Positions 7,130 through 30,016 of a stretch of DNA of 64,000 nt are shown in pieces. Position 1 is the first letter of the stretch, and each line of letters starts with the position of its first letter. Below the pieces are notes generated by a model, which was not told the DNA's origin, made no database searches, and saw only the letters and a list, made by a program, of their open reading frames with translations. The DNA comes from a phage. The DNA lies in the sequence record PX393109.1; one strand, given 5' to 3'. The position numbers and the translations under genes were made by a program.

Positions 7130-8377
7130 ATGGAACAGGTAAAGATTTCTGAATTCATCACCAAGAACTACACTGACTACAGTGTGTACTGTGCTCTTCA
7201 TCGTGTAGTTCCTGGTATCGATGGCCTGATTCCTGCTCAGCGTCGTATCTACATGGCGCTGAATAGCATTGCTCGCGGGAAGCTGGTTGGGACTCTGAGT
7301 GCTATCTCCGAGACTCAGTCGCTCCACCCATTCGGCGACCAGTCTATCGATGGAACTATCTCTCGTCTGGCTCGTATCGGAGCTATTGATGGTCAGGGTT
7401 CCTTCGGTGTGAAACTGTTGGAAGAAGTACCTGGTGCGGCTCCTCGTTACACGAAGGTTGGCCTGAACGAAGATCGTGCAGAGTACTACTTCGGCTTAGC
7501 GGACTATGTTCCGCAGGTGGAAGGTGAAGAGAAGATGGAATATGCGTACCTTCCGGTGCCGATTCCGTATGCTCTGATGTACGGTACCTTCTCATGGGCT
7601 ACGGGGATTCAGTCTCGTATTCCAGCGTTCACCTATGAGTCACTGCTGGATGCTTATGAGCATGATGACTACAATCTGCTTAAGGCTCAGTACGGTTACG
7701 ATATCGTGCCTGCTAAGTCTGACCTTAAGCAGCTGTGGGAAACTGGTGTAGGTCGCCTCGGTCTTAGCCTTAAGGTGACTCGTGTCAATACCGATACCAT
7801 CGACATCATCGGGTCTGGTGAGGTGATTACTCCTCGCATCGGCTTCCTGAATAAGTGGCTGTCCGAAGGTAAGATCCTGGTCAAGAACATGTCCAAGGAT
7901 AAGATCTATATCCGAGTAATGAAGGCTCCACGTATCAGAACCATCGATATGGACGAGGTTCACGAAGCATGCATGAATATTGCTTACATGAACCGCTCGC
8001 ATCGTATCCAGGTAGCTTATAATGGCCAATTGGTGACGATGGGTATTCGCGACTGGATTGCAGTCACGATGGCTCTCTACAATCAGGCATTCTCCGTCCA
8101 TAAGACTGAGTCGCTTAAGAAGATTGACCGAGACATCGAGATTTACCAGATTCTTCCTAAAGTGGGCGAGCTGGTTATGCAGGATAAGTCTGATGCTCAG
8201 ATCATCAAAGCTCTCGGTATTACCCAGGAAGTGTTGAATTCCTGCCTTAGCCGTAGCATTAGCATGTTGCGTAAGAAAGATCACGACGACCGCATTGCTA
8301 ATCTGCAAGAGCGTCGTGCTAAGGTAGAGAATCAGACTTCTGATGAGATGATTCAGAAGATGATCGGTAAACTGTAA
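7130..8377 (+). CDS. type II DNA topoisomerase DNA-cleavage subunit (GyrA N-terminal-like; T4 gp52-like)
   Basis: IPAQRRIYMAL and active-site-Tyr region AAPRYTKV resemble GyrA/ParC breakage-reunion domain. Confidence 0.75.
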   Translation: MEQVKISEFITKNYTDYSVYCALHRVVPGIDGLIPAQRRIYMALNSIARGKLVGTLSAISETQSLHPFGDQSIDGTISRLARIGAIDGQGSFGVKLLEEVPGAAPRYTKVGLNEDRAEYYFGLADYVPQVEGEEKMEYAYLPVPIPYALMYGTFSWATGIQSRIPAFTYESLLDAYEHDDYNLLKAQYGYDIVPAKSDLKQLWETGVGRLGLSLKVTRVNTDTIDIIGSGEVITPRIGFLNKWLSEGKILVKNMSKDKIYIRVMKAPRIRTIDMDEVHEACMNIAYMNRSHRIQVAYNGQLVTMGIRDWIAVTMALYNQAFSVHKTESLKKIDRDIEIYQILPKVGELVMQDKSDAQIIKALGITQEVLNSCLSRSISMLRKKDHDDRIANLQERRAKVENQTSDEMIQKMIGKL

Positions 8378-8382
8378 CTAAC

Positions 8383-8410
8383 TAGGGTGACTTCGGTCAC
8401 CCTAATTTTT
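8383..8410 (+). terminator. rho-independent terminator (TAGGGTGAC-TTCG-GTCACCCTA + T-run)
   Basis: Perfect 9-bp stem, UUCG loop, aattttt. Confidence 0.7.
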
Positions 8411-8481: not shown

Positions 8482-9222
8482 ATGTTTGGTAAACATATCG
8501 AGTGTAACTTCGTTCCTGGTACTAAGGTCACGAAGGCTTCACTGGGCAACGGAGGTACCTCCTACTTAGTCCAGAAGCACTTTCTCCAATGGATGCTCCG
8601 TAACGAAATTATCTCCGGGCCAATCCTGGATATGGGATTAGGTCGTGGAGAGATCGGTCTAGCTCTCCGTAACGCAGGATTCGAAGGTCAGATCACAGGT
8701 CTGGACATCTGCGAAGACTACATCAAAGGCAGTGTAAATGTATATAGCGATATCTACATCTGCAATATCGTTGAACTGCTGAAAGATCTTCCTATTGAAG
8801 AGCTGGATAAATTCGGCACTATTATCTGGCTAGATGTGTTGGAGCATCTGGATAGCGAAGATGGGCTTATGGTGTTGTCTAAGCTATTCCAGTCTAAGGC
8901 TAAAATCGTGATCGGTACTCCTAACTACGAGTATCGTCAGCGTGGTACGGAGACTAATCCTTTCGAGGAACATAAATCTCACTGGGACTGCCGACTCCTT
9001 ACCCAGTTTAATCCAGATCTCGCACTGTTCGATAACATTGGTGCTGCTACTTATCTGTGGGATCAATCGGATAAGACCGGTAATATTCCTCTGCTTAAGT
9101 ACGAGCAGTCTAAGGTACAGAAACGTGAAGTGCCTAAGCTGCTGGAAGATACCGGATTTGGTGAAGGAATCTGGGATGTAACAGCTAAGGTGAAGATAGC
9201 AGATCTCTCCGAATTAAAGTAA
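8482..9222 (+). CDS. class I SAM-dependent methyltransferase
   Basis: Motif I ILDMGLGRGEIG, acidic post-I GLDICEDY, motif II-like IIWLDVLEHL. Confidence 0.6.
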   Translation: MFGKHIECNFVPGTKVTKASLGNGGTSYLVQKHFLQWMLRNEIISGPILDMGLGRGEIGLALRNAGFEGQITGLDICEDYIKGSVNVYSDIYICNIVELLKDLPIEELDKFGTIIWLDVLEHLDSEDGLMVLSKLFQSKAKIVIGTPNYEYRQRGTETNPFEEHKSHWDCRLLTQFNPDLALFDNIGAATYLWDQSDKTGNIPLLKYEQSKVQKREVPKLLEDTGFGEGIWDVTAKVKIADLSELK

Positions 9223-9301: not shown

Positions 9302-9323
9302 ACAAGTTAACTGAGGAATTAAA

Positions 9324-10232
9324 ATGAAGAAGTTAGATTTGATGATTGGCTGCACTAACCACACAGCAGCTACACTATCCCAGATTCTTAAGATGGGTGT
9401 AAGTCTGGACCAGGTTATGGTAGTTGATCAGGATCATACCAAGCATGGTTCAGTAGCGTTAACTGCTCCTCGTGAGGGATCAGTACGACTTCCTTATTTC
9501 GACTCGGTTATCGAAGAGCTGAATCAGGGTAAGTACCGCAATCCGGAAAGCTACATCTATACCAAAATCGGTAACGATCTGCACGCTATCGAAAGTACGT
9601 GGTCTAAAGCTGACCAATTATCCTGCCTTCGCTCCGAAGCTAATCTGGGAACTATGCCTGATTCGCTGATTGTACCGTCGTTTAGACTGTACCAGAAGCC
9701 TCAGGAGGCGTTTGTACGCCGTGATCGTGTTCACGGGGGCAAGGGTGCAGGCACTATGTCGGACCTTCTGGGGGACTCCCCAATTTTGGTCTGTGATAAG
9801 GCGCCGGACGAATATACTACTTCTCTGGTACTTCAAGCAGATGTTATCGACGGTATGGTAGTTGCCTGGGATCTTCTGGTTAGCCCGAGCGGGTTCAAGG
9901 ATTATGCAGATATTTTCACTATCCAGGGTAAATCCTACGAAGATACTGACTTCACTCCGTACTGCCATAACTACGTTATATCTACTGATGCCCGTGGATT
10001 CGGCTATAGTCATTCGGTAGACCACTTCGAAGATGTTGCGCAATTCGTTGCAGACGCATGTAACGTACGCGAGGGTATGATGAGCACTGAGCTCTTCTGT
10101 ACTCGGGATCTTCAGGAGTGCTTCTATATCGAAACCAACTTCCGTAGTGCGGACATCGTCCTCGCTACTTCACCTGCTGGCTACGCATACGTCCGTCGCC
10201 AGTTAATCGCTAAGGGCGTAATTGAGGAATAA
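9324..10232 (+). CDS. hypothetical protein (302 aa), member of putative modification cluster
   Basis: ORF with own class A motif and RBS; no confident domain assignment from sequence alone. Confidence 0.5.
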   Translation: MKKLDLMIGCTNHTAATLSQILKMGVSLDQVMVVDQDHTKHGSVALTAPREGSVRLPYFDSVIEELNQGKYRNPESYIYTKIGNDLHAIESTWSKADQLSCLRSEANLGTMPDSLIVPSFRLYQKPQEAFVRRDRVHGGKGAGTMSDLLGDSPILVCDKAPDEYTTSLVLQADVIDGMVVAWDLLVSPSGFKDYADIFTIQGKSYEDTDFTPYCHNYVISTDARGFGYSHSVDHFEDVAQFVADACNVREGMMSTELFCTRDLQECFYIETNFRSADIVLATSPAGYAYVRRQLIAKGVIEE

Positions 10233-10235
10233 TCA

Positions 10236-11618
10236 ATGTCAGATTCAAAGGTAGTTACCTGGGGGACGGTGCTAGTAACGGTGGGTATCATACTCGCCAT
10301 TATGTTAGCTCCCACCCAGTTTGGTGCTGTAATGGACTGGAGTAAGTCTGTATTCATATCTCAGTATGGATTCATATTTACCTGGTCTTCGCTGATCTTC
10401 CTAGCGTTCCTGGCATTCTTTGTATTCAGCAAGCATGGTAACATTAAGCTGGGTAAAGGTGCTCCGAAATATAATCGCTTTACCTATTACTCCATGATGT
10501 TTAGTACCGGTATGGGTGTATCCATGATTTATTATGGTGTACTCGAACCTATGTACCATCAGCAGGAGGGTATGTCCGAACGTCAGAATATGGTAACTAC
10601 CTTCTTTGACTGGGGACTTAACGCATGGGCAGTTTATGCAGTCGTAGGGGTGGCATTCGGGTACTTACTGCATGTACGTGGTGAAGACCGTCCGCTTAAT
10701 CAGTTATTCAAGTCCCGAGCTCTGAATAACCTTAATACGATAAGCTTACTCTTCTCTACCATCATAGGCTTAACCCTGTCGTTCGTCTACGCAGTAGGCC
10801 CGATCAGTTCCGGATTTAAAGAGTTCCTGGGAGTGGATGTTGGTCCTTACACCATTATCGCGCTCCTGACTCTGGGTACTGTACTTAGTGCCGTAACTGG
10901 TGTCGATCGTGGGGTTAAGTGGTTATCCAGATATAATGTAATCGTAGCTCTATCTATTATGGCATTCGTTGCTGTAAGTGGTACATTCTTCGAATACCTC
11001 TGGAAGACCATCACCTATTCTGGTAGCTATCTGCTCCAGATTATTCCTATGTCAGTAAACATCGGCAGTACTGCTGAAGAGAAGCAATGGCTGGCTAGCT
11101 GGCCTTATGCTTACTATGCAGCCTGGGTAGGTTGGGCATTATTCGTCGGAGCGTTTGTGGCACGTATCTCTTACGGCCGTACTATTCGCGAACTGATCCT
11201 CGGATGTGTACTGTTCCCTACCATCATCAGTAACGTCTGGTTTACCGTATTCGGTGTAGCTGGTCTACAACATGGTGCTCAGGATATCTTCCAGCTTCTG
11301 GCTAATTTCCCAGGCGGATGGATATTCTCGGTAATTACCCTCGTGTCTGTGATCCTGTTCTTTATTACAGGTCATGACTCAGCAGGTATTACGGTAGAGT
11401 CCATGACCGCTCCTAGAACTCGTGTATTCTGGATTGTAAGCATGGGTGTAGTTGCTGCTGCACTTAACTGGGCAGGTGGCGACGTAGTAACTGTAACGAA
11501 GACTCTGGTAGCTGTATCGGCTGTTCCGGTACTGATTGGGGTATTGTGTATTCTATTCGGGTTCCTCAAGATCTTTGTACCTAAAGTATTCTTGGCTAAG
11601 GAAACTCCGCCTGTTTGA
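10236..11618 (+). CDS. BCCT-family transporter (betaine/carnitine/choline transporter-like)
   Basis: Multi-TM protein with Trp-rich BCCT signature region AWVGWALFVGAFVARISYGRTIRELILG, as I recall it from BetT/CaiT/OpuD. Confidence 0.7.
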   Translation: MSDSKVVTWGTVLVTVGIILAIMLAPTQFGAVMDWSKSVFISQYGFIFTWSSLIFLAFLAFFVFSKHGNIKLGKGAPKYNRFTYYSMMFSTGMGVSMIYYGVLEPMYHQQEGMSERQNMVTTFFDWGLNAWAVYAVVGVAFGYLLHVRGEDRPLNQLFKSRALNNLNTISLLFSTIIGLTLSFVYAVGPISSGFKEFLGVDVGPYTIIALLTLGTVLSAVTGVDRGVKWLSRYNVIVALSIMAFVAVSGTFFEYLWKTITYSGSYLLQIIPMSVNIGSTAEEKQWLASWPYAYYAAWVGWALFVGAFVARISYGRTIRELILGCVLFPTIISNVWFTVFGVAGLQHGAQDIFQLLANFPGGWIFSVITLVSVILFFITGHDSAGITVESMTAPRTRVFWIVSMGVVAAALNWAGGDVVTVTKTLVAVSAVPVLIGVLCILFGFLKIFVPKVFLAKETPPV

Positions 11619-11642
11619 TGACCTAAAAGGCTGTTAAGGTGT
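11607..11642 (+). promoter_or_regulatory. class A conserved promoter-like motif, copy 4
   Basis: CCGCCTGTTTGATGACCTAAAAGGCTGTTAAGGTGT overlapping 3' end of transporter gene. Confidence 0.55.
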
Positions 11643-11653
11643 CAGAGGCGTAC

Positions 11654-11686
11654 GGGGTTAGGTCTCTACGGCCTAACCCCATTTTT
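11654..11686 (+). terminator. hairpin terminator (GGGGTTAGG...CCTAACCCC + ATTTTTG)
   Basis: 9-bp stem and T-run located between class A copy 4 and the next gene; shares CCCCATTTTTGTGTAG tail with terminator at 4437. Confidence 0.6.
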
Positions 11687-11704
11687 GTGTAGCGAGGATT
11701 AATA

Positions 11705-12316
11705 ATGAAGTCACGACTGATTATCAGCCCACATCACGATGATGAGATTCTGGGTTGCGGAGGTATTATGAGCAAATTCCGCGATGACCAATTCTTCATC
11801 CTCGAAGTAACTGCTCCGGACGAGACCCGTCGTGGCGAAGCCGAAGCAGCATTCGGTGTCTATCCGAATATCAAAGAAGTACATTGCCTGGAGCGTAACG
11901 ATGCCTCCACAGGCGATGGTATGACTCAGAAGGATATTCCGCAATTGGCTAAGGATATTGCGGACTATGTTGCTAAAATCAGGCCGGATGTAGTCTATAT
12001 TCCGTTCAGTAGCCTACACCAGGACCATCAACTAGTTAATCATGCTGCTCGTGTAGCTCTCCGAGCGTATAACTGGCTTATCCTGGAATATGAGTATGCC
12101 GAGTCCCTGACCCAGTTCGGTCAGATGGAACCTAATTACTTCGAGCGTCTGAATAAGGACGATATTGAGTGTAAGTGCCAGGCTATGGGACGATTCGACT
12201 CCCAGATTAAGTCAGACCGAGATACCCAGAGTATCTTAGCCCTAGCCACCTTACGTGGATATTCCGCCCAGTGGCCGTACGCCGAAGGGTTTCGCTTAGT
12301 TCGTCAAATTGGATAA
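11705..12316 (+). CDS. PIG-L/LmbE-family deacetylase (N-acetyl-sugar deacetylase-like)
   Basis: N-terminal ISPHHDDEILGCGG and HQDH motifs characteristic of the zinc-dependent LmbE/PIG-L fold. Confidence 0.65.
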   Translation: MKSRLIISPHHDDEILGCGGIMSKFRDDQFFILEVTAPDETRRGEAEAAFGVYPNIKEVHCLERNDASTGDGMTQKDIPQLAKDIADYVAKIRPDVVYIPFSSLHQDHQLVNHAARVALRAYNWLILEYEYAESLTQFGQMEPNYFERLNKDDIECKCQAMGRFDSQIKSDRDTQSILALATLRGYSAQWPYAEGFRLVRQIG

Positions 12317-12322
12317 ATAATT

Positions 12323-13357
12323 ATGACCACCAAAGTAGCTTTTATCATCCCAACCTATCATCGTCTGAAGTCGGTACTCCGTCAGATTCAGTCGTTCAAA
12401 GATGCTAAAAAGACTGACGACTCTATTGAGTATCGCTTCTTCTACTTTATTCAGGATGCCTCCGAAGAAGATAAGGCAATTCTGGAAGAGCAGTTTGGTG
12501 GGGATGAGCAATTTAATTTCTGTCATAGCCCTAAGTACGAAAATCCGGTAATCGGAGAAATCCGTGCCCATGCTCTGGATAAAGCATGGATTGTAATGGA
12601 GAAGCAGGACTGGTGCCCAGACATCTGCTACTTCGTGGATGATGATGTCTGGTTCGCCGACGATATCTTCCATCTGGATCGGTCCATTATCGACTTCGAG
12701 GGATCTGAGTTTGAGATGGCGTTCGTCCGTAGCTTCAAGAACCGTAACTACAAGATTGTTGAACTCTGCGATCGTCAGTCCCATAATAACACTGCTCCGG
12801 CTACTGACCTGGGTATTATGGTCAAGACTAGCGAGAAGATGTTCTGGCTGTTCGATAAGACCTTCCAGCAACTCACTGTAGGTGAGGATTGCTACCTGTT
12901 GTTTAAAGGTATGGCGATGGGATGGAAAGTGGGCCAGGTAACCGGTACTGGTAGCTCGTTCTACTGGGATGAGAACTGGTTAATGGACACCTCTTCTAAT
13001 GGCGGTGGTATTCACGAAGTCACCGTAGCTAAGCTAGGCTACTCTCCGAAAGATATGGTAACTCGTAATGAGCTGCTTAGCCGTCCAGATAAGTCCTACG
13101 TACAGTGGCATTGTGCAGATATGTTCCACTATGACTCTGCAGATAGCTCGTTCCGTCGTATTCGTCCCAACATCCAGGAATACTTGAAAGAGTATTGTAC
13201 GGCTACCGAAGATGCAATTATCCGAGCTCCTGGTGCTGGGGTAATGAAGTTCGATGGAACTAACCGTACGGTATTCGGATTAAACAAAGACTATTCCTAC
13301 TTAACTGATCTCAATGATAAGTGGCTGAGTTGGGCATCAGCTAATTCGCTTCTTTGA
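12323..13357 (+). CDS. GT-A fold glycosyltransferase (family 2-like)
   Basis: N-terminal AFIIPTYHR and DXD-type YFVDDD motifs. Confidence 0.5.
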   Translation: MTTKVAFIIPTYHRLKSVLRQIQSFKDAKKTDDSIEYRFFYFIQDASEEDKAILEEQFGGDEQFNFCHSPKYENPVIGEIRAHALDKAWIVMEKQDWCPDICYFVDDDVWFADDIFHLDRSIIDFEGSEFEMAFVRSFKNRNYKIVELCDRQSHNNTAPATDLGIMVKTSEKMFWLFDKTFQQLTVGEDCYLLFKGMAMGWKVGQVTGTGSSFYWDENWLMDTSSNGGGIHEVTVAKLGYSPKDMVTRNELLSRPDKSYVQWHCADMFHYDSADSSFRRIRPNIQEYLKEYCTATEDAIIRAPGAGVMKFDGTNRTVFGLNKDYSYLTDLNDKWLSWASANSLL

Positions 13358-13404: not shown

Positions 13405-14484
13405 ATGAAAATTGCAGTAACTAACTTTTCGCCATGCAGCGATAAATCCATCATCGCCAGTAACACTCTGGCATCCTGGTTAGCCTACGGACTTCAGGCG
13501 GACTTGCTGGATGATACTCCTAAGTTTGTTAAGGCTATGGAAGATGGCACCAAATATGACGTGATCATCGCCGTCAATGGTGTTCCTACCTTCTGTAAGT
13601 TCCGCGATGAGATGTATAAATTCTGGGTAGACCAGGCGGACCTCGGAGCTAAGTTTTACTGGATTGGTCAAGATTATTCATCACGTATGCGTATCCAGGG
13701 TCCGCAGTGGCGACACATCACAGCAGCTACGACATTTAAAGTAGTAGCAGCATTCGAGCGTACTTCCTGGGGTAATCAGTACTCCCCTAGCGAAGAGAAC
13801 TATCACCACATTAACTGGAACCGTCTTACCTACGTTCCTGGTCGTAAGCCTCGCTACGGCTCATCTGATAAACCAGACAATAGCCTGCTGTATTACGGTG
13901 CTGCTCGTGAAGGTCGCTTCCATAAGTTCACTCAGTACTTCTCCCAGCAGGATGGTCTGGAACTGTTTATGTCGGTGCCTAGCTACAAAGCTCAGATGTC
14001 TATCGCTAAACATACTGGTGGTCTTGCTGGATTTGACGGCTACGAGCAGGAAAACTGGGAAGAGCTGGATCCTAAAGAACGTAAGTGGCTGGGGCCTGCT
14101 GCTCCTATTAACTGGCTGCCTAAGTTTAAGCTGTCAGAGATGCTGGATGAAGTGGCTAAATACGCAGCGGTACTGCTTATTGAAGACTGGAACTCTAGTA
14201 ACTCGTTCTATACCAGCCCACCTAACCGTTATTATGAATACCTGAGCTCTGGTACTCTGATGTTGGTGGATAAAGATGCTGCCGGAACAATAATCCGGAG
14301 CGGCGTCCCCGAAGAGCTGCTGGCTCCTCTGATCGTCTCCAGTAATGCGGAGATTGCAGAGAAACTGAAAGATCGTGATGCTCTGCTGAAACATCAGTAT
14401 GAGAATCTGTATCTGCGCAAGGATTACGCACAAGAACTTCAGGATGAAGTAATCGACTACTTTACCAAAGAAGGTATTCTTTAA
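13405..14484 (+). CDS. DNA beta-glucosyltransferase-like protein (T4 BGT-like, GT-B fold)
   Basis: Several colinear blocks resemble T4 beta-glucosyltransferase as I recall it (MKIAVTNFS vs MKIAIINMG; YDVIIAVNG; YYGAAREGRFHK vs YGGSFRSGQRE; RYYEYLSSGTLMLVD vs RVWETMASDAVMLID). Recall-based, needs alignment. Confidence 0.5.
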   Translation: MKIAVTNFSPCSDKSIIASNTLASWLAYGLQADLLDDTPKFVKAMEDGTKYDVIIAVNGVPTFCKFRDEMYKFWVDQADLGAKFYWIGQDYSSRMRIQGPQWRHITAATTFKVVAAFERTSWGNQYSPSEENYHHINWNRLTYVPGRKPRYGSSDKPDNSLLYYGAAREGRFHKFTQYFSQQDGLELFMSVPSYKAQMSIAKHTGGLAGFDGYEQENWEELDPKERKWLGPAAPINWLPKFKLSEMLDEVAKYAAVLLIEDWNSSNSFYTSPPNRYYEYLSSGTLMLVDKDAAGTIIRSGVPEELLAPLIVSSNAEIAEKLKDRDALLKHQYENLYLRKDYAQELQDEVIDYFTKEGIL

Positions 14485-15455
14485 TGTCAACACCGTTAGG
14501 TCTGCATTACGAAGGACTCCTTGGGATGATAAATCCTGAGGAGTTACGGGAGTATGTGGAGTATAACCGTGAACGTACAGAGGTTTATTATAAGAAGGAG
14601 GTGCTTAAGCTGCCTCCTCCGTGGACGGAACATAAGTGGATTAGTAAGTTCAAATTCACTAACGTGTTCCGTAAGCACGATCGTGAAACAGTGTGGGCTA
14701 TTAAGAACATTCTGGAGAACGATTCTTTAAGCTGGGAGAGTAAAGCACTTAATGTAGTACTCTTCCAGATGATAAACCGTGGTGATTCATATATGGATCG
14801 CTTCCGCAGAGTCCTTCCTCTTTATGAGATGAGCTATGACGACATACATAACATGGGTCGCGAAGAGCTACGTCGTTATGAGGATGGTCCTCCGTTCACC
14901 GCTCCACAGCAATCAAATGCCTACTTCCTTAGCACAGCAGTTAAGATGGCTAATGAAGTATGTCCAGAGGATATTAAGTACAGTGTAGCTGCCAGAGCCT
15001 ATCTGGTGAAGACCTACAGTGATCCTATCTTATGGGCATGGAAGTCTCCGTTCGCTACCGAGGCTATCGAGCATCTGTTACAGGTATCTGGATTAGGTCC
15101 GTTCATGGCATATCAATGCTGGGCAACTATGTCCTACTCTAAAGAGACTGCGTATACAGATAATGACGCTATCGTATGTGGACCTGGGACTCAGGATGGG
15201 GTATGGTACATGATTAATGACCAGAATCCTCCCTGTGGTTATCAGGTATTCGTGGAATGGTGGTATCAGAACATCAAAGAGATATGTGCACATTTCGGGT
15301 ATTCATGGGAACCGGAGAAATGGTTCCACTTCATGCCAGAGGATGAGCGATTCTATACTCGCCAGATGTTCACCAACTCATTCTGCGAATTCTCGAAACT
15401 ACATAAACTGAATCACGAGATCCGTATGAGACCTCGCTGGTATAAGTTTAGCTAG
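14484..15455 (+). CDS. hypothetical protein (323 aa), member of putative modification cluster
   Basis: ORF translationally coupled (TAATG) to upstream gene; no confident domain. Confidence 0.5.
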   Translation: MSTPLGLHYEGLLGMINPEELREYVEYNRERTEVYYKKEVLKLPPPWTEHKWISKFKFTNVFRKHDRETVWAIKNILENDSLSWESKALNVVLFQMINRGDSYMDRFRRVLPLYEMSYDDIHNMGREELRRYEDGPPFTAPQQSNAYFLSTAVKMANEVCPEDIKYSVAARAYLVKTYSDPILWAWKSPFATEAIEHLLQVSGLGPFMAYQCWATMSYSKETAYTDNDAIVCGPGTQDGVWYMINDQNPPCGYQVFVEWWYQNIKEICAHFGYSWEPEKWFHFMPEDERFYTRQMFTNSFCEFSKLHKLNHEIRMRPRWYKFS

Positions 15456-15517: not shown

Positions 15518-15544
15518 GGGAAAGATTCTTAATTGGAGAGAATA

Positions 15545-16267
15545 ATGAGAGACTATAGTATCCCAGGCTACAGTGTAATTATGTCTGGTGCGCAGGGTAC
15601 CGGTAAATCTACCCTGGCTAAAGGTTGGGAAGAATCAACCGAATGTACCTTCCGTGCAGTACAGACTCGTGACCATCTTCCTCTGGGAGTAACATCCCAT
15701 ATGGATATTCTGCGCTTAGCTGTAGAAGATCCTATGGAAGCGGTAGAGTTCCAGCTGCGTCTTATTCGTCAGCGAACTCAGATGTTCAAGGATGCCTACA
15801 ATCGTGGCGAGTTGATCGTCAGTGATCGTGCGGTATTCGATTCGTACGTTTACTTCCTGCTGCATAACAGTATGTTTGCCAGCCAGGAAGCTCGTGATGA
15901 GGCATTACGTCTCAGTAACGAGTCTATTGATTATTATAACATGACTCTGTTCTTCAATACGAAGGATAAGAGTATTGAGGACAATAACTTCCGTGTTGTT
16001 GATCCTGAATACTCTGTAGCAGTCAGTTCTACTCTCCTTAAGGTAACTATGCGTGCCTACGAGGAGCGATTCGGTGCTGCGTTGTGTAATTCTGTAACTC
16101 TGAATCATCCGGTGTATCCTGGATCAATCACAGCTCGTTTTACTAATACTGGTAAAGGTATTATGATCCTGAACGAGCCATCTGGTATGATCCCTCAGGA
16201 GGCCCGTCTGGAGTTACTGTCCTCTGCAGTTAAGTCTATTGATTCAGTGCGTAAGGACTCTAAATGA
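15545..16267 (+). CDS. P-loop nucleotide/deoxynucleotide kinase (dNMP kinase-like)
   Basis: Walker A MSGAQGTGKST near N-terminus, DR..FDSYVY lid-like region; size and layout resemble dNMP/dNK kinases. Start at ATG 15545 (track start is TTG). Confidence 0.55.
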   Translation: MRDYSIPGYSVIMSGAQGTGKSTLAKGWEESTECTFRAVQTRDHLPLGVTSHMDILRLAVEDPMEAVEFQLRLIRQRTQMFKDAYNRGELIVSDRAVFDSYVYFLLHNSMFASQEARDEALRLSNESIDYYNMTLFFNTKDKSIEDNNFRVVDPEYSVAVSSTLLKVTMRAYEERFGAALCNSVTLNHPVYPGSITARFTNTGKGIMILNEPSGMIPQEARLELLSSAVKSIDSVRKDSK

Positions 16268-17337
16268 TCTCGGTAATTCGCGGTAACAGTAATACTGAAA
16301 TCCTGGTTAACAGCATCAATACTATGGATAAGGCTGGTGAGTTGCAGAAGTCCAGAACTTCTGTTAACTCTTCGGCGGTAGTATCCATCGGTCATGCTGT
16401 AGTTGAGTTAAGTAATCCGATTAATCGTTGGATGGCTCATCCAGAACGTAAAGACAATATCCTCGGAATTATGGGGGAAGTATTGTGGGTACTGTCTGGT
16501 GGCTATGCAATCGATAACTGGATGTCGATTATGGTTCCTCGCGCTAAGATGTTTAGCGATGATATGGTTACCTGGCGTGGTGCTTACGGTGAGCGTCTGT
16601 ATAACTACGATCAACTCCAGACTGTAACAGACCGCCTCCGTTCTGACCTGGGTAACCGTAAGTGCGTGGCTACTATTCACGATCCCAGCCGTGATTCTGA
16701 TGTAGGTCTGGTAAACAGCATTGGCAGCATCAATACCGCAGATATGATCTGCAACATTGCTCTATCGTTTAAGTACCGTAATGGTGGTCTGGACTGCACG
16801 GTATTCAACCGTAGTAATGATCTAATCTGGGGATTGACTAACGTTAATCTGGTGGAGTTCACGATCATCCAGGAAATCATCGCAACTATGCTCAAAGTAG
16901 ATATGGGCAACTATGTGGTGATGACGGATGATCTCCACTGGTATCCGGAAGTGTCGAACATCAAGAAGCAGGTAAGTAATATCCGAGCTTATGTTGACGA
17001 CATTAATGAAGCTCCGGTAACTACGATTGATCTCGGATCACTTAATTCCTGGTATAAGATCCGTACCTACTTCCAGCATTACATCGCTACTCTTGAAGAT
17101 GCTGCTTCTCGTTATAATAGCGATCACAGTATTCTAGAATACGTAATGGAAGATGTTGGTCGAGAGTTCCAACCAGGATCAACTCTGGATGTGATGATGT
17201 GGTTAGCAGGCGCTCATTATCTATGTAAGACTACTGGAGCTCACATGTCTATCCAGTGCGAGCATCTGGTTAATTCACCATTCGTGAAATGGGTCGCGAA
17301 CCGCCTCGGGGATAAGTCTCCGTTTATTCTGGAATAA
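16264..17337 (+). CDS. thymidylate synthase / deoxypyrimidylate hydroxymethylase superfamily enzyme (ThyA-gp42 fold)
   Basis: Colinear ThyA-family motifs: EVLWVLSGG, WRGAYGERLY, DQLQ..RKCVATIHDP, catalytic-Cys region MICNIAL, NRSNDLIWGL, DDLHWY. The RSND and C-x-N features resemble T4 dCMP hydroxymethylase more than canonical ThyA. Confidence 0.7.
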   Translation: MISVIRGNSNTEILVNSINTMDKAGELQKSRTSVNSSAVVSIGHAVVELSNPINRWMAHPERKDNILGIMGEVLWVLSGGYAIDNWMSIMVPRAKMFSDDMVTWRGAYGERLYNYDQLQTVTDRLRSDLGNRKCVATIHDPSRDSDVGLVNSIGSINTADMICNIALSFKYRNGGLDCTVFNRSNDLIWGLTNVNLVEFTIIQEIIATMLKVDMGNYVVMTDDLHWYPEVSNIKKQVSNIRAYVDDINEAPVTTIDLGSLNSWYKIRTYFQHYIATLEDAASRYNSDHSILEYVMEDVGREFQPGSTLDVMMWLAGAHYLCKTTGAHMSIQCEHLVNSPFVKWVANRLGDKSPFILE

Positions 17338-17420: not shown

Positions 17421-18020
17421 ATGAAAGATCTTTTTAAGGTACCAGTGTGTACCAATAACGTGAATCGTTTCGCAGGTAAGCAAGTACTGTCTCATCGCTC
17501 TACTATCTCGGAGCATAGCTTCGAAGTTACTTACTACTCTACTCTGATTGTTCAGAAACTGGTGATGGATGGATTTTTAACTGCTGAGCAGGGTCTGGAA
17601 GTAAATCAGTACTCGTTGGTTCACGACATTCCAGAGATCTTTACAGGTGATGTCCCCTACACTGCTAAGGCTCGCTTCCCAGAGTTAAAAGAGACTCTGA
17701 ATAAAGTTGAGCAGGAAATCTGGGAAGAGGTACTTCCTACTTTCCGCACTCCTGCATCTGCCGAAGCTAAGTTCATCTGTAAAGTTGCAGATGCTATTGC
17801 GGTATCTCGTGAGATCATGACTGAGTTCAGCATGGGTAACATCTTCTTTGGCGAAAGCGAGCTGGAGAACTGCCGCAACATCTTCAGTACCTGCTTCAAT
17901 AAGTACAAAGACGAAGTGAGTGATGATGTATGGATGGGTACTCTCCAGTCTCTTCTCCATATGGCACATGGTAGTTCAATAGAGCACCTGGTTAAAGAGA
18001 CTATTGGCAATGCAGATTAA
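17421..18020 (+). CDS. HD-domain phosphohydrolase (YfbR-like 5'-deoxynucleotidase)
   Basis: HSFEV...VHDIPEIFTGDVP...KVADAIAV matches H...HD...D metal-binding pattern of YfbR-type HD nucleotidases. Confidence 0.65.
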   Translation: MKDLFKVPVCTNNVNRFAGKQVLSHRSTISEHSFEVTYYSTLIVQKLVMDGFLTAEQGLEVNQYSLVHDIPEIFTGDVPYTAKARFPELKETLNKVEQEIWEEVLPTFRTPASAEAKFICKVADAIAVSREIMTEFSMGNIFFGESELENCRNIFSTCFNKYKDEVSDDVWMGTLQSLLHMAHGSSIEHLVKETIGNAD

Positions 18021-20957: not shown

Positions 20958-20982
20958 CGGAGGTTTATTTTTGGAGTTAAAC

Positions 20983-23900
20983 ATGTTTCTGAATCACAAT
21001 TTAGTTGGCGAAGTAGACTATGTCATTATCGGGGACGAGCGCGAGAATAATGATGCTCCTCCGTTTGCTGCATCGAATGCTGGCCAAACTCTTGATGTAG
21101 CGCTAATTACAGCTGGGGTACATAACAAAGTTGGTCTGATAGAGATCAACAGAGATGGTACTTTCGAAGAGCTGTCTAACATAGACGAAATCCGTGATAA
21201 GGATGGTCTCAACTTTTACGAGCTGTGTGAAAAGCATGGCGTTAAGCATGTAATGACTTTGGGTCGCCAATTAGCTGCGACTATATCCCCAGGCTATACG
21301 CATAAGAAGACTCTGGATAAGCTACTGAAGTTCCCTCTGGGTAACATACCGGAGTATAACTTTAAGCTAGCTGTAGTCATGCACCATGCCCAGGTTGAAC
21401 GTAATCTGGATTCTGATCCTGGTATACTTGATTCGTGGATTGATCGTTTTAAGTTTCTGGTATTCGGCCAGAAAGAATCCGAATATAATGTAGAGTGGGA
21501 ATTCGTCGACTGGAACGGCCTCCAGGAGTTCCTTAACGACATTATGTGGTCTGGGTACAAAGGCTATCTCGGCCTCGACTATGAGTCTAACGCAGCTGAT
21601 TTATTCTCGGTAGACTTCCGGATCACTGGATTCAGTATCGCTAAGAAGATTGGTGATAAGGATGCCAAGTCCGTATGGTACAATGTTACCGGTAAAGAGA
21701 CTCCGGAACAGCTAGGATTCTTGCGTGACTTCCTGGTTAAGTTCCAGGAGCAGATCGTGGCGTTTAACTGTCCGTACGAGATTAAGACTACGTGGCATTG
21801 GTTAGACGTATTCTGCAAGTTTATCGATGCGATTGTAACTCTGACTATGCATGGCGAACGGAGCTCGTTGAAAGATGCTGCTCGTCGTTATTTACATGCA
21901 GACTTCTGGGAAGGGTCGGTACACGAATGGAAGGATCGTTGGGCAGCTATCTTCAAGGATATGAAGAAGCGTTGTACTCCTGAGCAGATTGCAGAGATTC
22001 AGTCTGGCGAGTTCAATATTGAGCATCACCTAGCTCTTAAAGCTGAGTACGAGAAACTCGTGGAAGCGGCTCCGACTAAGGCGGCTAAGAATCGTATTCC
22101 TGTTAACTTCAACCAGTTTATGCTGGATAAGATAGCCGAACTATCGGAGGAGCTCGAAGAATCCGAGATTATTTACTTGGCATCGTTCTACCCATATGAG
22201 TGGGGTGCGATTCCTCGTGAGATTCTTGGGGAGTACTGCTGCTATGACTCCGCGTACGGTGTGTTCATCCACGAGATGTTTTACGATAAGTATAAGGATG
22301 GGTATAACGTATATATGTTACATCCATACCTGGCATCTATCTTCGAAGCTAACGGTATTCGTTGGGATGACGAAGAGGCGACTAAAGAGTACGACTATTG
22401 CATGAGCAAAATGTCGGAGCACTTGGTTAGCCTAATCCCTAACCTTAAGTTACCTCCTGACCAGATGCTTACAGCTCGCGACTTTATCTATCGAGAGTTG
22501 CCGTACGAGAACGTATGGTACACTCCTGGTGGACAAGAGCGCCGTAAGATGGTTACTACTCTGGCTGGGAAGATTGCTGATCTGTCAGGATTCTTCAACC
22601 CTAACAGTAACGATAAGGCTAATAAGGAGAAGTTCTGGAAAGCCTATCTTACTGATGAAGTAGAGATGTGTACCATGCTATGGTCTGTAATGGACCAGCT
22701 TAAGGTGCATGACTACTGGGATAAAACCCTGCTGGCGATCTCTAAGGGGTTCGTGCCTAAGGATTCGGAGAAGCTGGAGAGGGAATTCTTCCGGGAGTTT
22801 CCGGTAGATGAGATCTTAACCAGGATCATCCAATTCGGGGATACTGCTGAGTCTAAGCATGTTCGGGAGTTAATTGCCATGTGCGTCCAGGACGGTCTGG
22901 AAGCTTATGAAGAGCGATTCACGAATAAGTTTAAAGCGGATGTTCTCGATGCCCAATTGGCTATTCACCAGTTGATGTTGGGAGTTAATCCGGATGACGA
23001 GTCTACCTGGAATACATCGTTCCGTATGATGGTTGACCTGAAGATGTATAAGCGTCACTACAAACAGATTGCTACATACATTGATGGTAAGGTAGGACGC
23101 CAGACGGTATGGGCAGCTAAACTACGTGATGGTTTACCTCCGCTGCGAGTTCGTAAGTACGACTGGGATAATCCGAAGTTGCAGGATGGTGAAGATTGCT
23201 ACATCATGACTCCGGACTTTAACTCGTTGGCTGCGATTACATCTCGTTGGCAGGCAGGTATTCATAACGTTCCTGGCGACAGTACTCTGCGTAACATCTG
23301 GGTATCTAAGCCGGAGGGTGGCCTGTGGTACCACCAGGACTTTAGCCAGGCTGAGCTGGTGATGGTTAGCGTGTTCGCCGATGACTCGGATATGAAGAAC
23401 GTATTCTTATCTGGTGGCGACATGCACCGATTCGTTAGCTCGATTGCATACCAGAAGTCTGAACCTGAAGTAACTGATGTTGAGCGTAAGGGTGGTAAGG
23501 CGATTAACTTCGCATTAGTATACCAGTCTAGCCTTGAATCGGTAGCGATGGTTGCTACTGGTGGTGATATGGAGCGTGCTCAGAATCTGATGGACACGGT
23601 ATTCGGTAAGTTTACCGGTCTTAAGGCATGGATTGATGCTACCAAGAAAAATGGCTTCGAGACTGGGTATGCTTATGGTTACTTCGGTAACCGTATCAAC
23701 CTGGAAGGTACCAACGTTAACTCTACTTCGGTGAACTATCCTATCCAGAATACTTCGTCGATGGTTGCTGGCGCAGGTATGTACTTCCTGGATGAGGACT
23801 TTAAGCAGTCCAATATGGAGGCCGAGACTCACATCATGGTCCACGACTCCTTGGATACCACATCCGGAATCAACGAGATGTTCAAGGTGTTCCAGAAGAC

Positions 23901-24270
23901 TCGTGAGAATATGGAGGGGGCTATTCGTGAACTCTGGGATATGCCTATGCGCACTGATATCGAATTCGGTGCTCGGGGCGGTTCCTTGATGGGTCTGGAT
24001 GACTATGGAGTTAACGAAGATGGTTCCGGATGGCTGATCGTTGAGGGTCGTGAGTCTGCATTGGAGAAACTACTGGAAGCTCTCGATCAGTATAGCCAGT
24101 GGACTCCATACGTAGAGATCCTTAAGGAGAAGGAGAAGTTAAACTCTATAGCTAACAGCTTCAACTCCAAATCCGGTATTCGTTCCGACGGTACAGGCTG
24201 GGGATGTAAGTATATCGAGCTTAAGGCTAAAATAACTCTGGAGCCTAAACATGGCGAGAAAGCAGCGTAA
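20983..24270 (+). CDS. family A DNA polymerase (Pol I-like) with N-terminal extension
   Basis: Motif A DFSQAELVMVS, motif B KGGKAINFALVYQ, motif C VHDSLD; N-terminal region has DEDD-like exonuclease motif LGLDYES. Start at ATG 20983 (track start is TTG). Confidence 0.8.
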   Translation: MFLNHNLVGEVDYVIIGDERENNDAPPFAASNAGQTLDVALITAGVHNKVGLIEINRDGTFEELSNIDEIRDKDGLNFYELCEKHGVKHVMTLGRQLAATISPGYTHKKTLDKLLKFPLGNIPEYNFKLAVVMHHAQVERNLDSDPGILDSWIDRFKFLVFGQKESEYNVEWEFVDWNGLQEFLNDIMWSGYKGYLGLDYESNAADLFSVDFRITGFSIAKKIGDKDAKSVWYNVTGKETPEQLGFLRDFLVKFQEQIVAFNCPYEIKTTWHWLDVFCKFIDAIVTLTMHGERSSLKDAARRYLHADFWEGSVHEWKDRWAAIFKDMKKRCTPEQIAEIQSGEFNIEHHLALKAEYEKLVEAAPTKAAKNRIPVNFNQFMLDKIAELSEELEESEIIYLASFYPYEWGAIPREILGEYCCYDSAYGVFIHEMFYDKYKDGYNVYMLHPYLASIFEANGIRWDDEEATKEYDYCMSKMSEHLVSLIPNLKLPPDQMLTARDFIYRELPYENVWYTPGGQERRKMVTTLAGKIADLSGFFNPNSNDKANKEKFWKAYLTDEVEMCTMLWSVMDQLKVHDYWDKTLLAISKGFVPKDSEKLEREFFREFPVDEILTRIIQFGDTAESKHVRELIAMCVQDGLEAYEERFTNKFKADVLDAQLAIHQLMLGVNPDDESTWNTSFRMMVDLKMYKRHYKQIATYIDGKVGRQTVWAAKLRDGLPPLRVRKYDWDNPKLQDGEDCYIMTPDFNSLAAITSRWQAGIHNVPGDSTLRNIWVSKPEGGLWYHQDFSQAELVMVSVFADDSDMKNVFLSGGDMHRFVSSIAYQKSEPEVTDVERKGGKAINFALVYQSSLESVAMVATGGDMERAQNLMDTVFGKFTGLKAWIDATKKNGFETGYAYGYFGNRINLEGTNVNSTSVNYPIQNTSSMVAGAGMYFLDEDFKQSNMEAETHIMVHDSLDTTSGINEMFKVFQKTRENMEGAIRELWDMPMRTDIEFGARGGSLMGLDDYGVNEDGSGWLIVEGRESALEKLLEALDQYSQWTPYVEILKEKEKLNSIANSFNSKSGIRSDGTGWGCKYIELKAKITLEPKHGEKAA

Positions 24271-28501: not shown

Positions 28502-30016
28502 ATGATCGTATCAAAGTCCTTGAATGAATTACACCGTCTTATTGATATGAAAGAAGCAACCTACACCACTCCGGTGCGTTTTTACTTCTCTGATGGTCCT
28601 AAAGAAACTACTATCGGTCGACTGTTTATTTGGGAAATCAGCGGCTATCTTCCAGAGAAAGAAATAGATAAGAAGGAATCTGCGAAGATCGTCTCTTACA
28701 TCAATAATAACTATACTCCGGAAGTGGCTGGTCGCCGACTGCATAAGTTGCAGCAGTTCGGATTTCATAAGGCTACTCAGTCTGGTCTGAGTTTATGTTA
28801 CGACGACACTAAGTTTGACTTCGGTATAGACTTTCCAGCCATGACTCAGGAACTCGGTAAGATGGGGTACGAGGATCGTCTGGCTGCTGCGGATAAAGTC
28901 ATCAACGAATGTACCGATCGCTGGTTTAAGGAAGTAGACCGTCATAATCCGCTGTATGCGATGGGTGTATCTGGTGCTCGTGTATCTCCTCCCCAGGTTC
29001 GTTCGATGGTGGTGGCTAAAGGCCTTCTGGTGGGCATGACTGGCAAGATCATGCCGATGCCGATCATGGAGAACTTAAGCTCTGGATTATCTCCCATCAA
29101 CTACTTCAATACCTGCGGACCTGCTCGTAAGGGTCTGGCTGGTAACTTCTTCCTGGTACCTGCGACTGGTTGGTTTGCTCGCCAGCTGGTTAACTGTTCC
29201 AGAGAGTTGTCTATTGTAGAAGAAGACTGCGGAACTAAGGAAGTAATCACCTTACCTAAGAAATCAGCACTGTATCGATTCACTAGCGACCGAATAATGG
29301 TTACTAAAGAGAATGTGGATCAGCTGGCGGATGAAGAAGGTAATGTGAAAGTCCTTAGCCCTATCACCTGTGAATCAACTAAGGGTGGGGTATGTCAGCA
29401 TTGCTGTGGTATGGATCCCGCTAAGCCTGCTAACTTCTTCCCTATTAACTTCGGTATTGGAACGGCGTCGGCGCAACATATCTCCGAACCATCTACTCAG
29501 GCTGGTCTCCGTGGTAAGCATACATCTGGTTCGACTACGCTTAAGGAATTCGGTACTTCGGTAAGTAACTCCTTAGCCGATATCCTGAAGACGGTAGGTG
29601 GCCGAGGAACTGCGGTGGCTCAGGTATCTGAGTCTAAGTATAAGTGCATCACGGATCTTGCCCACGAAACTGGATCAGCAATTAAAGGTGCAGAGTTAGC
29701 TGCGATTCAGCTTAAGCACATCTTCGACGACATCGGTATCGGTATCGCATCGATTCACCATGAGATCATTGCTCGCGGTTGTACTGATCTGGTTAAGATG
29801 AATAATGGACGAATCGGTGTTCGCAGCATGGGAGATAAGGGTGAGGTACTGGCGATTAAAGCCGATGCCATCCCTACGAAGCATCCCAGCTGGTTGAAGT
29901 CTATTGGCCATGGTAACGTTAAACGTAGACTTACTGATGCAGTGCTTAATGGTGATGTTAGCTTCGGAACCCGTTCCGAGATGATCATTGCTGGGTTAAA
30001 TCTGAATAACAAATAA
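28502..30016 (+). CDS. RNA polymerase beta-prime-like subunit, C-terminal half (bridge helix/trigger loop region)
   Basis: NTCGPARKGLAGNFFLVPATGWFARQLV resembles beta-prime region F (STHGARKGLADTALKTA..GYLTRRLV); ASAQHISEPSTQAGLRGKH resembles trigger-loop AAQSIGEPGTQLTMRTFH. Confidence 0.75.
   Translation: MIVSKSLNELHRLIDMKEATYTTPVRFYFSDGPKETTIGRLFIWEISGYLPEKEIDKKESAKIVSYINNNYTPEVAGRRLHKLQQFGFHKATQSGLSLCYDDTKFDFGIDFPAMTQELGKMGYEDRLAAADKVINECTDRWFKEVDRHNPLYAMGVSGARVSPPQVRSMVVAKGLLVGMTGKIMPMPIMENLSSGLSPINYFNTCGPARKGLAGNFFLVPATGWFARQLVNCSRELSIVEEDCGTKEVITLPKKSALYRFTSDRIMVTKENVDQLADEEGNVKVLSPITCESTKGGVCQHCCGMDPAKPANFFPINFGIGTASAQHISEPSTQAGLRGKHTSGSTTLKEFGTSVSNSLADILKTVGGRGTAVAQVSESKYKCITDLAHETGSAIKGAELAAIQLKHIFDDIGIGIASIHHEIIARGCTDLVKMNNGRIGVRSMGDKGEVLAIKADAIPTKHPSWLKSIGHGNVKRRLTDAVLNGDVSFGTRSEMIIAGLNLNNK

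Follow-up and report, generated by a model that had tools for sequence, protein, structure and literature searches.

The window analysed here is a stretch of 64,000 nucleotides from a phage (sequence record PX393109.1), and at positions 10236-11618 it carries a gene for a transporter of the betaine/carnitine/choline transporter (BCCT) family, which follows immediately on a gene for a predicted ATP-grasp-fold enzyme. The two genes lie in a cluster for the hypermodification of thymidine through 5-hydroxymethyldeoxyuridine (5-hmdU), and we propose that the transporter imports a compound from outside the cell, which the enzyme would attach to the thymidine modification. The pair is arranged as follows:

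9324..10232, + strand: ATP-grasp-fold enzyme of 302 amino acids (aa), from its predicted structure; may ligate the compound taken up by the transporter, 'hypothetical' in GenBank
10236..11618, + strand: BCCT-family secondary transporter reduced to a minimal core; 460 aa, ATG start, 12 predicted transmembrane (TM) segments

The 460-aa protein belongs to the BCCT family (TC 2.A.15) over its full length, as the initial annotation had recognised from a Trp-rich signature in a multi-TM protein. The Pfam model PF02028 (E 4.3e-92, 309.5 bits against a cut-off of 27) aligns residues 7-446 with model positions 1-481 of 485, and the best phmmer match in the PDB is BetP (E 3e-48, residues 9-447), followed by the trimethylamine, choline, DddT and CaiT transporters. 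BetP, the Na+/glycine betaine symporter of Corynebacterium glutamicum (PDB 2WIT, 4AIN and 3P03), is the closest solved structure at ~31% identity. Kyte-Doolittle peak picking finds 12 hydrophobic segments in the phage protein, in agreement with the 12-segment core that it shares with BetP, and its alignment to the BetP core (residues 60-544) contains few gaps.

The residues that form the substrate site in BetP are largely retained. In an alignment of the phage protein with BetP, Escherichia coli BetT, CaiT and 20 other BCCTs, the Trp-rich stretch AWVGWALFVGAFVARISYGRTIRE (residues 296-319) is the TM8 signature of the family. BetP W189, W194 and Y197 correspond to phage W126, W131 and Y134, and BetP W374 and W377 to W297 and W300; five of the six BetP positions of the TM8/TM4 aromatic box for trimethylammonium groups are thus kept. 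The sixth, W373, is A296 in the phage protein and A, N or S throughout a clade of short BCCTs to which it belongs. BetP F380, R387 and R392 are also kept, and the Gly-rich stretch of TM3, G92-M93-G94-V95-S96, aligns with BetP G149-M150-G151-x-G153, retaining G-M-G and replacing the final Gly by Ser (G153 to S96). The further changes relative to BetP are W371 to Y294, T250 to L179 and S468 to G379. Residues of the binding box and the TM3 motif are invariant across the clade; the functional roles of the aligned BetP residues are taken here, by assumption, to be those of the BetP literature. Reading the coupling ion or the substrate from the Na+-site and G153 positions of BetP was considered and rejected, since the same positions vary among the ordinary BCCTs in the alignment.

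Outside the BetP-aligned core, the phage protein has only 8 N-terminal and 13 C-terminal residues, whereas the tails of BetP comprise ~59 and 51. The N- and C-terminal domains of BetP and BetT confer the response to osmotic conditions, and the phage protein, judged by its length and alignment, is a bare core devoid of osmosensing tails. It also falls below the cut-offs of the specialised NCBIfam models, namely TIGR00842 for BCCTs (235.4 versus 407.55 bits), NF047988 for glycine betaine transporters (242.7 versus 650) and NF002887 for CaiT (105.3 versus 541). P0007, which represents the short clade in bacteria, likewise misses TIGR00842 (204 bits); the NCBI model thus captures a core of the family from which the short clade is excluded. 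E. coli BetT (a choline:H+ symporter) and CaiT (a carnitine/gamma-butyrobetaine antiporter) share the Pfam family and, largely, the aromatic box. However, BetT has ~25% identity to the phage protein, is 677 aa long with a long C-terminal domain and carries Asp at the position of phage Ser96, and the BetT model NF007399 scores 154.7 against 695 bits; CaiT differs throughout the TM3 motif. Because all NCBIfam cut-offs are missed, the label 'BetT' that one close relative bears in GenBank is, as far as the sequence can tell, over-specific.

That relative belongs to one of two Escherichia phages in which the ~9-kb region around the transporter gene is nearly identical to the window: vB_EcoM_IME392 (116 kb, 96% identity) and EP_H11 (111 kb, 94%), which come from sewage and a pig farm. 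Their GenBank product names are 'putative Bcct family transporter' and, in EP_H11, 'high-affinity choline uptake protein BetT'; the family call is already public and hence not new. Seven or eight genes neighbouring the transporter gene are 'hypothetical' in both records. The initial annotation knew of no BCCT as a standard phage gene, and this agrees with the distribution: tblastn finds a BCCT match in 27 of 50,697 phage records, of which four appear genuine (two Vibrio phages besides IME392 and EP_H11); by size, title or annotation of the record, we judge most of the 27 to be bacterial contigs deposited under a phage name. Among these are a 386-kb 'Staphylococcus phage', the 'Acinetobacter phage MD-2021a' whole-genome shotgun contigs with betT, betU and yeaV, and a Salmonella Infantis contig, and collections of this kind overstate the number of BCCTs in phages.

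Within this sparse distribution the phage transporters form a lineage of their own. A search of 5.8 billion proteins returned three relatives of 88-99% identity and four short BCCTs (452-473 aa) of 40-44%, followed by ordinary BCCTs of 500-650 aa at no more than 34%. In a neighbour-joining tree the short BCCTs form one clade (100% of 100 bootstraps), within which the phage-encoded proteins form a sub-clade (87%). The phage BCCTs are thus monophyletic despite identities of only ~42% among themselves, and the pairing with the ATP-grasp gene is therefore old and co-inherited. The ratio of nonsynonymous to synonymous substitution (dN/dS) is 0.02-0.05 among four orthologues, at dS values of up to 1.6, which are saturating, and GC content overall and at third codon positions (GC3) is typical of the phage. 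Together, these features characterise the transporter gene, at the level of sequence evolution, as an old, vertically kept and functional phage gene under purifying selection that is not decaying, and a functional importer is the almost certain reading of it. Recent capture of a host BCCT was considered and rejected, given 25% identity to E. coli BetT, a phage-only clade and phage-typical GC and GC3. In IMG/VR (2.9 million contigs), searches with the single BCCT protein, a profile of the BCCT clade and an ATP-grasp profile returned no relatives, whereas several relatives of the BCCT clade and of the ATP-grasp family are present in Logan assemblies of raw runs; they may be missing from IMG/VR because they are rare, or because phage DNA with heavily modified T is reportedly hard to sequence (PMC12686479).

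The enzyme encoded upstream was assigned to the ATP-grasp superfamily by structure prediction. An AlphaFold2 (AF2) model on a 4-sequence alignment reached a predicted local distance difference test score (pLDDT) of 35, and the fold comes from a rerun to which five remote homologues had been added; in a fold search, this model shows a three-domain ATP-grasp fold, with ligases as its best matches. None of the nine family members has a Pfam match (E<=5), and there is no profile match in the PDB. R132, G138, K140, E256 and E270 are invariant in the family and N272 is present in eight of the nine sequences. By their place in the sequence, these residues may correspond to the ATP/Mg2+ motifs expected of the fold, namely the Lys of the glycine-rich loop, the acidic residue and E-x-N. 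A fold and a role are thereby proposed for a 'hypothetical' gene family.

Several observations tie this enzyme to the transporter. The ATG of the BCCT gene lies 4 nt past the stop codon of the ATP-grasp gene, with a Shine-Dalgarno sequence, GAGGA, inside the upstream gene, and in three other contigs (L010, L019 and L020) the stop and start codons overlap; the transporter is thus predicted to be translationally coupled to the ATP-grasp gene. An exhaustive search of 1.84 billion representative proteins places the ATP-grasp family in only eight lineages, and genomic context was retrieved for every member. The next gene encodes a BCCT in five of the eight and a major facilitator superfamily (MFS) transporter in one; the enzyme is therefore paired with a transporter in six of eight lineages, from two superfamilies. 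The BCCT partners are those of the window group, L013 and L021 (88-89% identical to the window protein), L010 (43%), L019 (42%) and L020, a partial protein with a Pfam E value of 1e-18. In L017 (204-1785), which holds the most distant homologue (P0108), a sugar-type MFS transporter (Pfam E 3e-37) begins 2 nt downstream. This swap suggests an 'import-and-attach' cassette that can change its class of transporter. Synteny, which the initial annotation had proposed to look for in related phages, is found across lineages for the ATP-grasp/BCCT pair itself, and the genes around the pair differ between lineages. We regard functional coupling of the transporter to the ATP-grasp enzyme, as deduced from this gene order, as highly probable.

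Two terminator-like hairpins, both of them pattern matches only, bracket the methyltransferase-like, ATP-grasp and BCCT genes:

8383..8404, + strand: terminator-like hairpin with T-run after the topoisomerase genes, found in a consensus scan; 9-bp stem followed by ATTTTTGG
11654..11680, + strand: strongest terminator-like hairpin of the region, directly past the BCCT stop codon; 11 bp, 7 of them GC, followed by ATTTTTGTG

The upstream hairpin is a candidate boundary of a unit of these three genes. The intergenic region between the transporter and the following gene has a predicted RNA fold of -28.2 kcal/mol, and the downstream stem recurs in IME392 and EP_H11 and, despite its divergence, in L013, a single U-A pair having become U-G. 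Two open reading frames (ORFs) of the window bear Rpb1/beta'-like domains (28502-30016 and 31596-33164, domains 3-5 in one and 1-2 in the other), that is, pieces of a split multisubunit RNA polymerase as in phages of the phiKZ/AR9 type. Since the phage encodes such pieces, a sigma-70 promoter scan of the region is of limited value.

The other genes of the cluster are:

8482..9222, + strand: class-I S-adenosylmethionine (SAM) methyltransferase-like protein, 246 aa, an accessory and variable gene (Pfam Methyltransf_25/23/31/11, E 4e-5 to 1e-3)
11705..12316, + strand: PIG-L/LmbE-type zinc de-N-acetylase, 203 aa (Pfam PIG-L E 6.7e-14, 52.9 versus 28.2 bits)
12323..13357, + strand: 344-aa protein (unk344) with motifs FIIPTYHR and DDD, GT-A-like by eye only
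13405..14484, + strand: 359-aa protein (unk359), faintly GT-B-like (sub-threshold Pfam match to Glyco_trans_1_2, E 0.017)
14484..15455, + strand: 5-hmdU DNA kinase-family protein (PF18723 HMUDK_hel E 4.8e-35, 121.7 versus 25 bits)
15533..16267, + strand: P-loop (AAA_28) nucleotide-kinase-like protein (Pfam AAA_28 E 2e-9; PHROG 'thymidylate kinase' E 1e-11)
16264..17337, + strand: thymidylate-synthase (TS) homologue (PF00303 Thymidylat_synt E 4.7e-12, 46 versus 24.3 bits)
17421..18020, + strand: HD-domain YfbR-like 5'-deoxynucleotidase (Pfam YfbR-like E 1.7e-14)

A 5-hmdU DNA kinase (5-HMUDK) family gene is a hallmark of thymidine hypermodification after replication, and the presence of both this gene and a TS homologue identifies a 5-hmdU hypermodification cluster, and the modification cluster in which the initial annotation had set the transporter is hence borne out. 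Of the two neighbours it named, a deacetylase does follow directly, but the methyltransferase-like gene lies two genes upstream; the ATP-grasp gene, which it had overlooked, is the direct upstream neighbour. The 5-HMUDK, TS-homologue, nucleotide-kinase and HD genes are adjacent in the window and in L013, L021, L010 and L019, and the ATP-grasp/BCCT pair is found among them in every contig long enough to judge. Furthermore, the AAA_28 kinase gene adjoins the TS-like gene also in L010, L013 and L019, where the YfbR-like gene is syntenic as well. The TS homologue is a candidate dUMP hydroxymethylase making 5-hmdUMP, a role suggested by its family, and it is listed for IME392 and EP_H11 in Table 1 of PMC12686479. 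The divergent phage contig L019 (1-14536) carries an unusually rich hypermodification cluster: besides the pair it encodes HMUD2, HMUDK and an amino-acid:DNA transferase (ADDT), together with a GT4 glycosyltransferase, a cupin similar to mannose-P isomerase, a cytidylyltransferase of 148 aa and a protein resembling inositol-1-phosphate synthase.

Homologues of 5-HMUDK occur in 375 phage records, mainly of ViI-like Ackermannviridae, Vibrio, SPO1-like Bacillus and M6-like Pseudomonas phages, the groups known for 5-hmdU-derived modifications. A BCCT of the present clade stands beside the 5-HMUDK gene in two of the 375, IME392 and EP_H11 only. By PolA these two phages fall in the SP-15/YerA41/Carin-5 ('RP13-like') group, and their modified thymidine has been deduced from gene content (PMC12686479; 10.1101/2025.03.26.645540). 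Neither of these reports mentions the transporter. One of them describes aGPT-Pplase in EP_H11 and IME392 and says of the 5-HMUDK that goes with it that this 'could not be detected' (10.1101/2025.03.26.645540); the ORF at 14484-15455 may be the aGPT-Pplase gene under an older name, or the missed kinase. A full-text search of the literature, of incomplete coverage, returned no paper linking a BCCT, any other transporter or an ATP-grasp enzyme with thymidine hypermodification, and the ATP-grasp/transporter cassette inside such clusters appears to be unreported. An assignment of the 184-Da and 104-Da masses of YerA41 to phosphocholine and choline was considered and rejected: phosphocholine would add ~165 Da by our own arithmetic, and tblastn gives no BCCT match in the YerA41 records.

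At its tailoring end, the cluster seems to be built from exchangeable modules. The Pfam matches of the methyltransferase-like protein are all under the gathering cut-offs (the best at 24.6 versus 27 bits), with weak UbiG/BchM-like NCBIfam matches, and BLASTP found no homologue of it among the L013 genes compared. In L013 (3674-7578) and L021 (3-2838) five other genes lie upstream of the ATP-grasp gene; one of them encodes a pyruvoyl enzyme resembling phosphatidylserine decarboxylase, and another is an unk344 paralogue. The PIG-L protein, whose PDB matches are TT1542 and diacetylchitobiose deacetylase, is encoded next after the BCCT not only in the window but also in L013, L021 and L010 (46% identity). 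For unk344 there is no match in Pfam, the PDB or PHROG, and for unk359 none in the PDB or PHROG; homologues of both were found in this phage group only.

Elsewhere in the window, a Pol-beta/X-like ORF (HHH_8 and DNA_pol_B_thumb) lies directly upstream of a gene for an NAD-dependent DNA ligase (39788-42569), and these, with the 1099-aa PolA (20971-24270), could form a base-excision-repair set of the phage. Far from the cluster, a 322-aa ORF (45009-45977) with a Glycos_transf_1 (GT-B) match just under the cut-off (E 2e-5) may encode a further glycosyltransferase for DNA or for the surface. In L010, a divergent phage contig, the gene for a topoisomerase A subunit (9312-11708) bears an intein (Intein_splicing and a weak HNH_3), from which the 415-aa orthologue in the window (7130-8377) is free.

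The 5-hmdU pathway to which the cluster belongs has known relatives. The pathways of ViI, M6, PhiW-14 and SP10 were reportedly described by Lee and colleagues in PNAS in 2018 and in NAR in 2022. In these and in the SP-15/YerA41/Carin-5 group, a TS homologue, 5-hmdU kinase, nucleotide kinase and HD protein are clustered with tailoring enzymes, as here (PMC12686479). The known pathways differ in building from molecules resident in the cell, namely amino acids in the ViI/M6 type and putrescine in PhiW-14 (PMC12686479; 10.1101/2025.03.26.645540).

A second phage lineage pairs a transporter of this family with enzymes that activate and attach its presumptive cargo. The Vibrio phages 1.031.O (MG592415; L011:7824-10822) and 150E35-1 (OX241562; L012:7827-10828) each contain three overlapping genes in the order cytidylyltransferase/choline-kinase-like fusion, BCCT-like protein and LicD. 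The BCCT-like protein (411 aa, annotated 'TMhelix containing protein') matches the Pfam BCCT model with E 1e-45 (156.2 versus 27 bits). Several of the other scores are marginal: in L011 the fusion matches CTP_transf_like (E 6e-9, 36.7 versus 21 bits), Choline_kinase just below its cut-off (E 6e-6, 26.3 versus 29) and APH (25.2 versus 23.2), and LicD reaches 23.3 against 22.6 bits. In the lic pathway of Haemophilus and Streptococcus, LicB is the permease, LicA the kinase, LicC the cytidylyltransferase and LicD the transferase, and LicB is not a BCCT. From these matches, the Vibrio phages (~150 kb) are predicted to carry a full lic-type set for import, activation and transfer, with the BCCT-like protein as permease, and a second phage lineage would thus independently pair a BCCT-like transporter with activating and attaching enzymes. 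The window phage resembles the lic pathway in encoding a putative dedicated importer for a quaternary amine together with enzymes that would activate and attach it, and differs in having an ATP-grasp enzyme and PIG-L in place of the kinase, cytidylyltransferase and LicD.

Clues to the substrate come from the bacterial members of the short clade, P0006 and P0007 (452-463 aa, 38-43% identity). They share with the phage protein the replacement of W373 by a small residue and of W371 by a residue other than Trp, and P0006 also has Ser for G153. In contrast to the phage gene, theirs lie on chromosomes, serve catabolism and lack a partner of the ATP-grasp type, and their substrates are deduced from context. 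The context of P0006 is uninformative in this respect. P0007, from Zobellella aerophila, lies between a gene for an acetyl-esterase-like hydrolase and BKACE and L-carnitine-dehydrogenase-like genes; beside these are gamma-butyrobetaine dioxygenase (431 versus 415 bits), the GbcA/GbcB glycine-betaine monooxygenase above cut-offs and GbdR-like regulators, all in one catabolic island for carnitine, gamma-butyrobetaine and glycine betaine. The locus resembles the cdh/hocS carnitine operon of Pseudomonas. Guilt by association at 38-40% identity suggests that the short clade carries quaternary ammonium carboxylates of the carnitine type.

Taken together, the BCCT family, the intact aromatic box, the purifying selection on the gene, the assignment of the neighbouring enzyme to the ATP-grasp fold, the coupling of the two genes and the location in a 5-hmdU cluster are supported directly, and from them we infer the direction of transport, the substrate, the partners joined by the ligase and the product on DNA. 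We propose that the tail-less BCCT imports an external compound that the ATP-grasp ligase attaches to the thymidine modification, and give this reading a probability of roughly 0.5. The transporter would be made together with the ligase from one early or middle phage transcript and would enter the inner membrane of the host, where it would take up a quaternary-ammonium or similar cationic compound from outside, free of osmotic control. E. coli is not known to synthesise choline, carnitine or glycine betaine de novo, and the uptake systems of the host, ProP, ProU, BetT and CaiT, are gated osmotically or metabolically; a host that cannot make such compounds and gates their uptake provides the rationale for an unregulated phage importer. 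The likeliest substrate would bear a carboxylate, as in carnitine, gamma-butyrobetaine or glycine betaine, an assignment that we hold tentatively. The ATP-grasp enzyme would activate this carboxylate as an acyl-phosphate and couple the compound to a nucleophilic group of the nascent thymidine modification. In the window phage, the nucleophile would probably be an amine freed by PIG-L on an N-acetyl-hexosamine attached through the 5-hmdU/5-hmdU-kinase pathway, and in the L019 lineage the amine of an amino acid installed by ADDT.

Bases modified in this way would be bulky and permanently charged and would protect the DNA from host nucleases, and a product on DNA is marginally favoured over one elsewhere. 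In its most specific form, the proposal is that an exogenous quaternary-ammonium compound, namely carnitine, gamma-butyrobetaine or a molecule of the betaine type, is amide-linked by the ATP-grasp ligase to a side chain of 5-hmdU that consists of a sugar or an amino acid, giving DNA with a lasting positive charge derived from a nutrient, and that this is the work of a portable cassette equipped with either a BCCT or an MFS transporter; in all these details together it is a tentative suggestion. There is a mechanistic analogy, and only that, in mycothiol and bacillithiol synthesis, where the PIG-L deacetylase MshB or BshB acts first and an ATP-dependent ligase then adds an acid to the freed amine of glucosamine. 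Here too a PIG-L de-N-acetylase stands beside a predicted ATP-dependent ligase, although the ligase is of the ATP-grasp rather than the MshC type, the proposed acceptor is tethered to DNA and the BshB match is 25 against 182 bits.

A number of points weigh against this proposal. BCCT substrates are normally inert osmolytes, and we know of none that serves as a building block of nucleic-acid modification; a modification that needs an external nutrient would tie the phage to its medium. The variation at the Na+-site positions of BetP (T250 to L179, S468 to G379), together with G153 to S96, makes ion coupling and specificity unreadable from the sequence. The fold matches of the ATP-grasp model include the kinases ITPK1 and PPIP5K, and the fold does not prove ligase chemistry. 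For two ATP-grasp lineages, L016 and L018, the contigs are short and show no transporter gene after that of the enzyme. Nor can the deacetylase step be general, there being no PIG-L beside the pair in L019, and the proposed glycosyltransferases, unk344 and unk359, have no significant family match.

The same components could also serve a product that is not on DNA. The imported compound might be consumed in making a free metabolite, such as a mycothiol-like conjugate or an anti-defence molecule, or in decorating a protein or the envelope. Indeed, ATP-grasp ligases mostly act on small molecules and peptides, as the lists of fold matches reflect, PIG-L enzymes serve the mycothiol, bacillithiol and N-acetylglucosaminyl-phosphatidylinositol (GlcNAc-PI) pathways, and LicD classically decorates glycans and teichoic acids. 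However, the pair lies within or beside 5-hmdU and nucleotide genes in all contigs that can be judged, L019 adding ADDT and HMUD2, and related phages carry bulky sugar and phosphate modifications of T according to the literature. We consider an off-DNA product unlikely.

Alternatively, the transporter might be a BetT-like choline importer and the ATP-grasp enzyme a kinase, with a phosphocholine-type group added as in the lic pathway. The GenBank name in EP_H11, the choline kinase/cytidylyltransferase/LicD set beside the BCCT-like gene in the Vibrio phages, the ATP-grasp-fold kinases among the structural matches and the phosphate in the T modification of related phages described in the literature are all in keeping with such a route. 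It is nevertheless quite unlikely: the BetT model reaches 154.7 of 695 bits at 25% identity to E. coli BetT, Ser replaces the Asp of BetT, the window genes scanned include no cytidylyltransferase or LicD, the nearest bacterial member of the clade is in a carnitine rather than a choline operon, and the best structural matches of the enzyme are ligases, not kinases.

The initial annotation had offered two functions, import of a modification substrate and osmotic manipulation of the infected cell. The former is favoured by the ATP-grasp coupling, the conserved pair and the Vibrio precedent, whereas the latter has found no specific support. As an auxiliary metabolic gene, the transporter would import compatible solutes that keep the infected cell osmotically fit or energised until lysis, and its position in the cluster would be accidental. 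The characterised BCCTs are not known to move anything but osmolytes or their catabolic precursors, with which the names of the PDB matches agree, and the sewage and pig-farm origins of the relatives are assumed to be variable in osmolarity. This option is hard to reconcile with the absence of the two regulatory tails, the N- and C-terminal domains for osmotic activation, and with the conserved synteny: the transporter is coupled to the ATP-grasp gene, and the pair is kept in five lineages while its neighbours change. Furthermore, the MFS transporter in the most distant ATP-grasp lineage argues that it is the enzyme, not the cell, that needs the import, and BCCTs of this clade occur in only two of the 375 5-HMUDK phage records, there beside 5-HMUDK. 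We hold an osmotic role to be quite unlikely. That the gene serves no useful transport, as a membrane-perturbing, exclusion or decaying passenger gene, might be read from the missed NCBIfam equivalog and TIGR00842 cut-offs and the change of W373 to Ala, but is scarcely credible given a dN/dS of 0.02-0.05 with saturating dS, a full-length Pfam match, invariant binding-box and TM3 residues, and small residues in place of W373 also in bacterial members in normal chromosomal contexts.

If the proposed import and attachment by the ATP-grasp/BCCT cassette is correct, the phage would use for hypermodification a building block beyond the biosynthetic reach of its host, which only the surroundings can supply. 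The gut, for one, is rich in choline, carnitine and betaines. Some phages would thus extend the chemistry of their DNA with compounds from outside the cell, and the protection of their genomes would be linked to the chemical environment.

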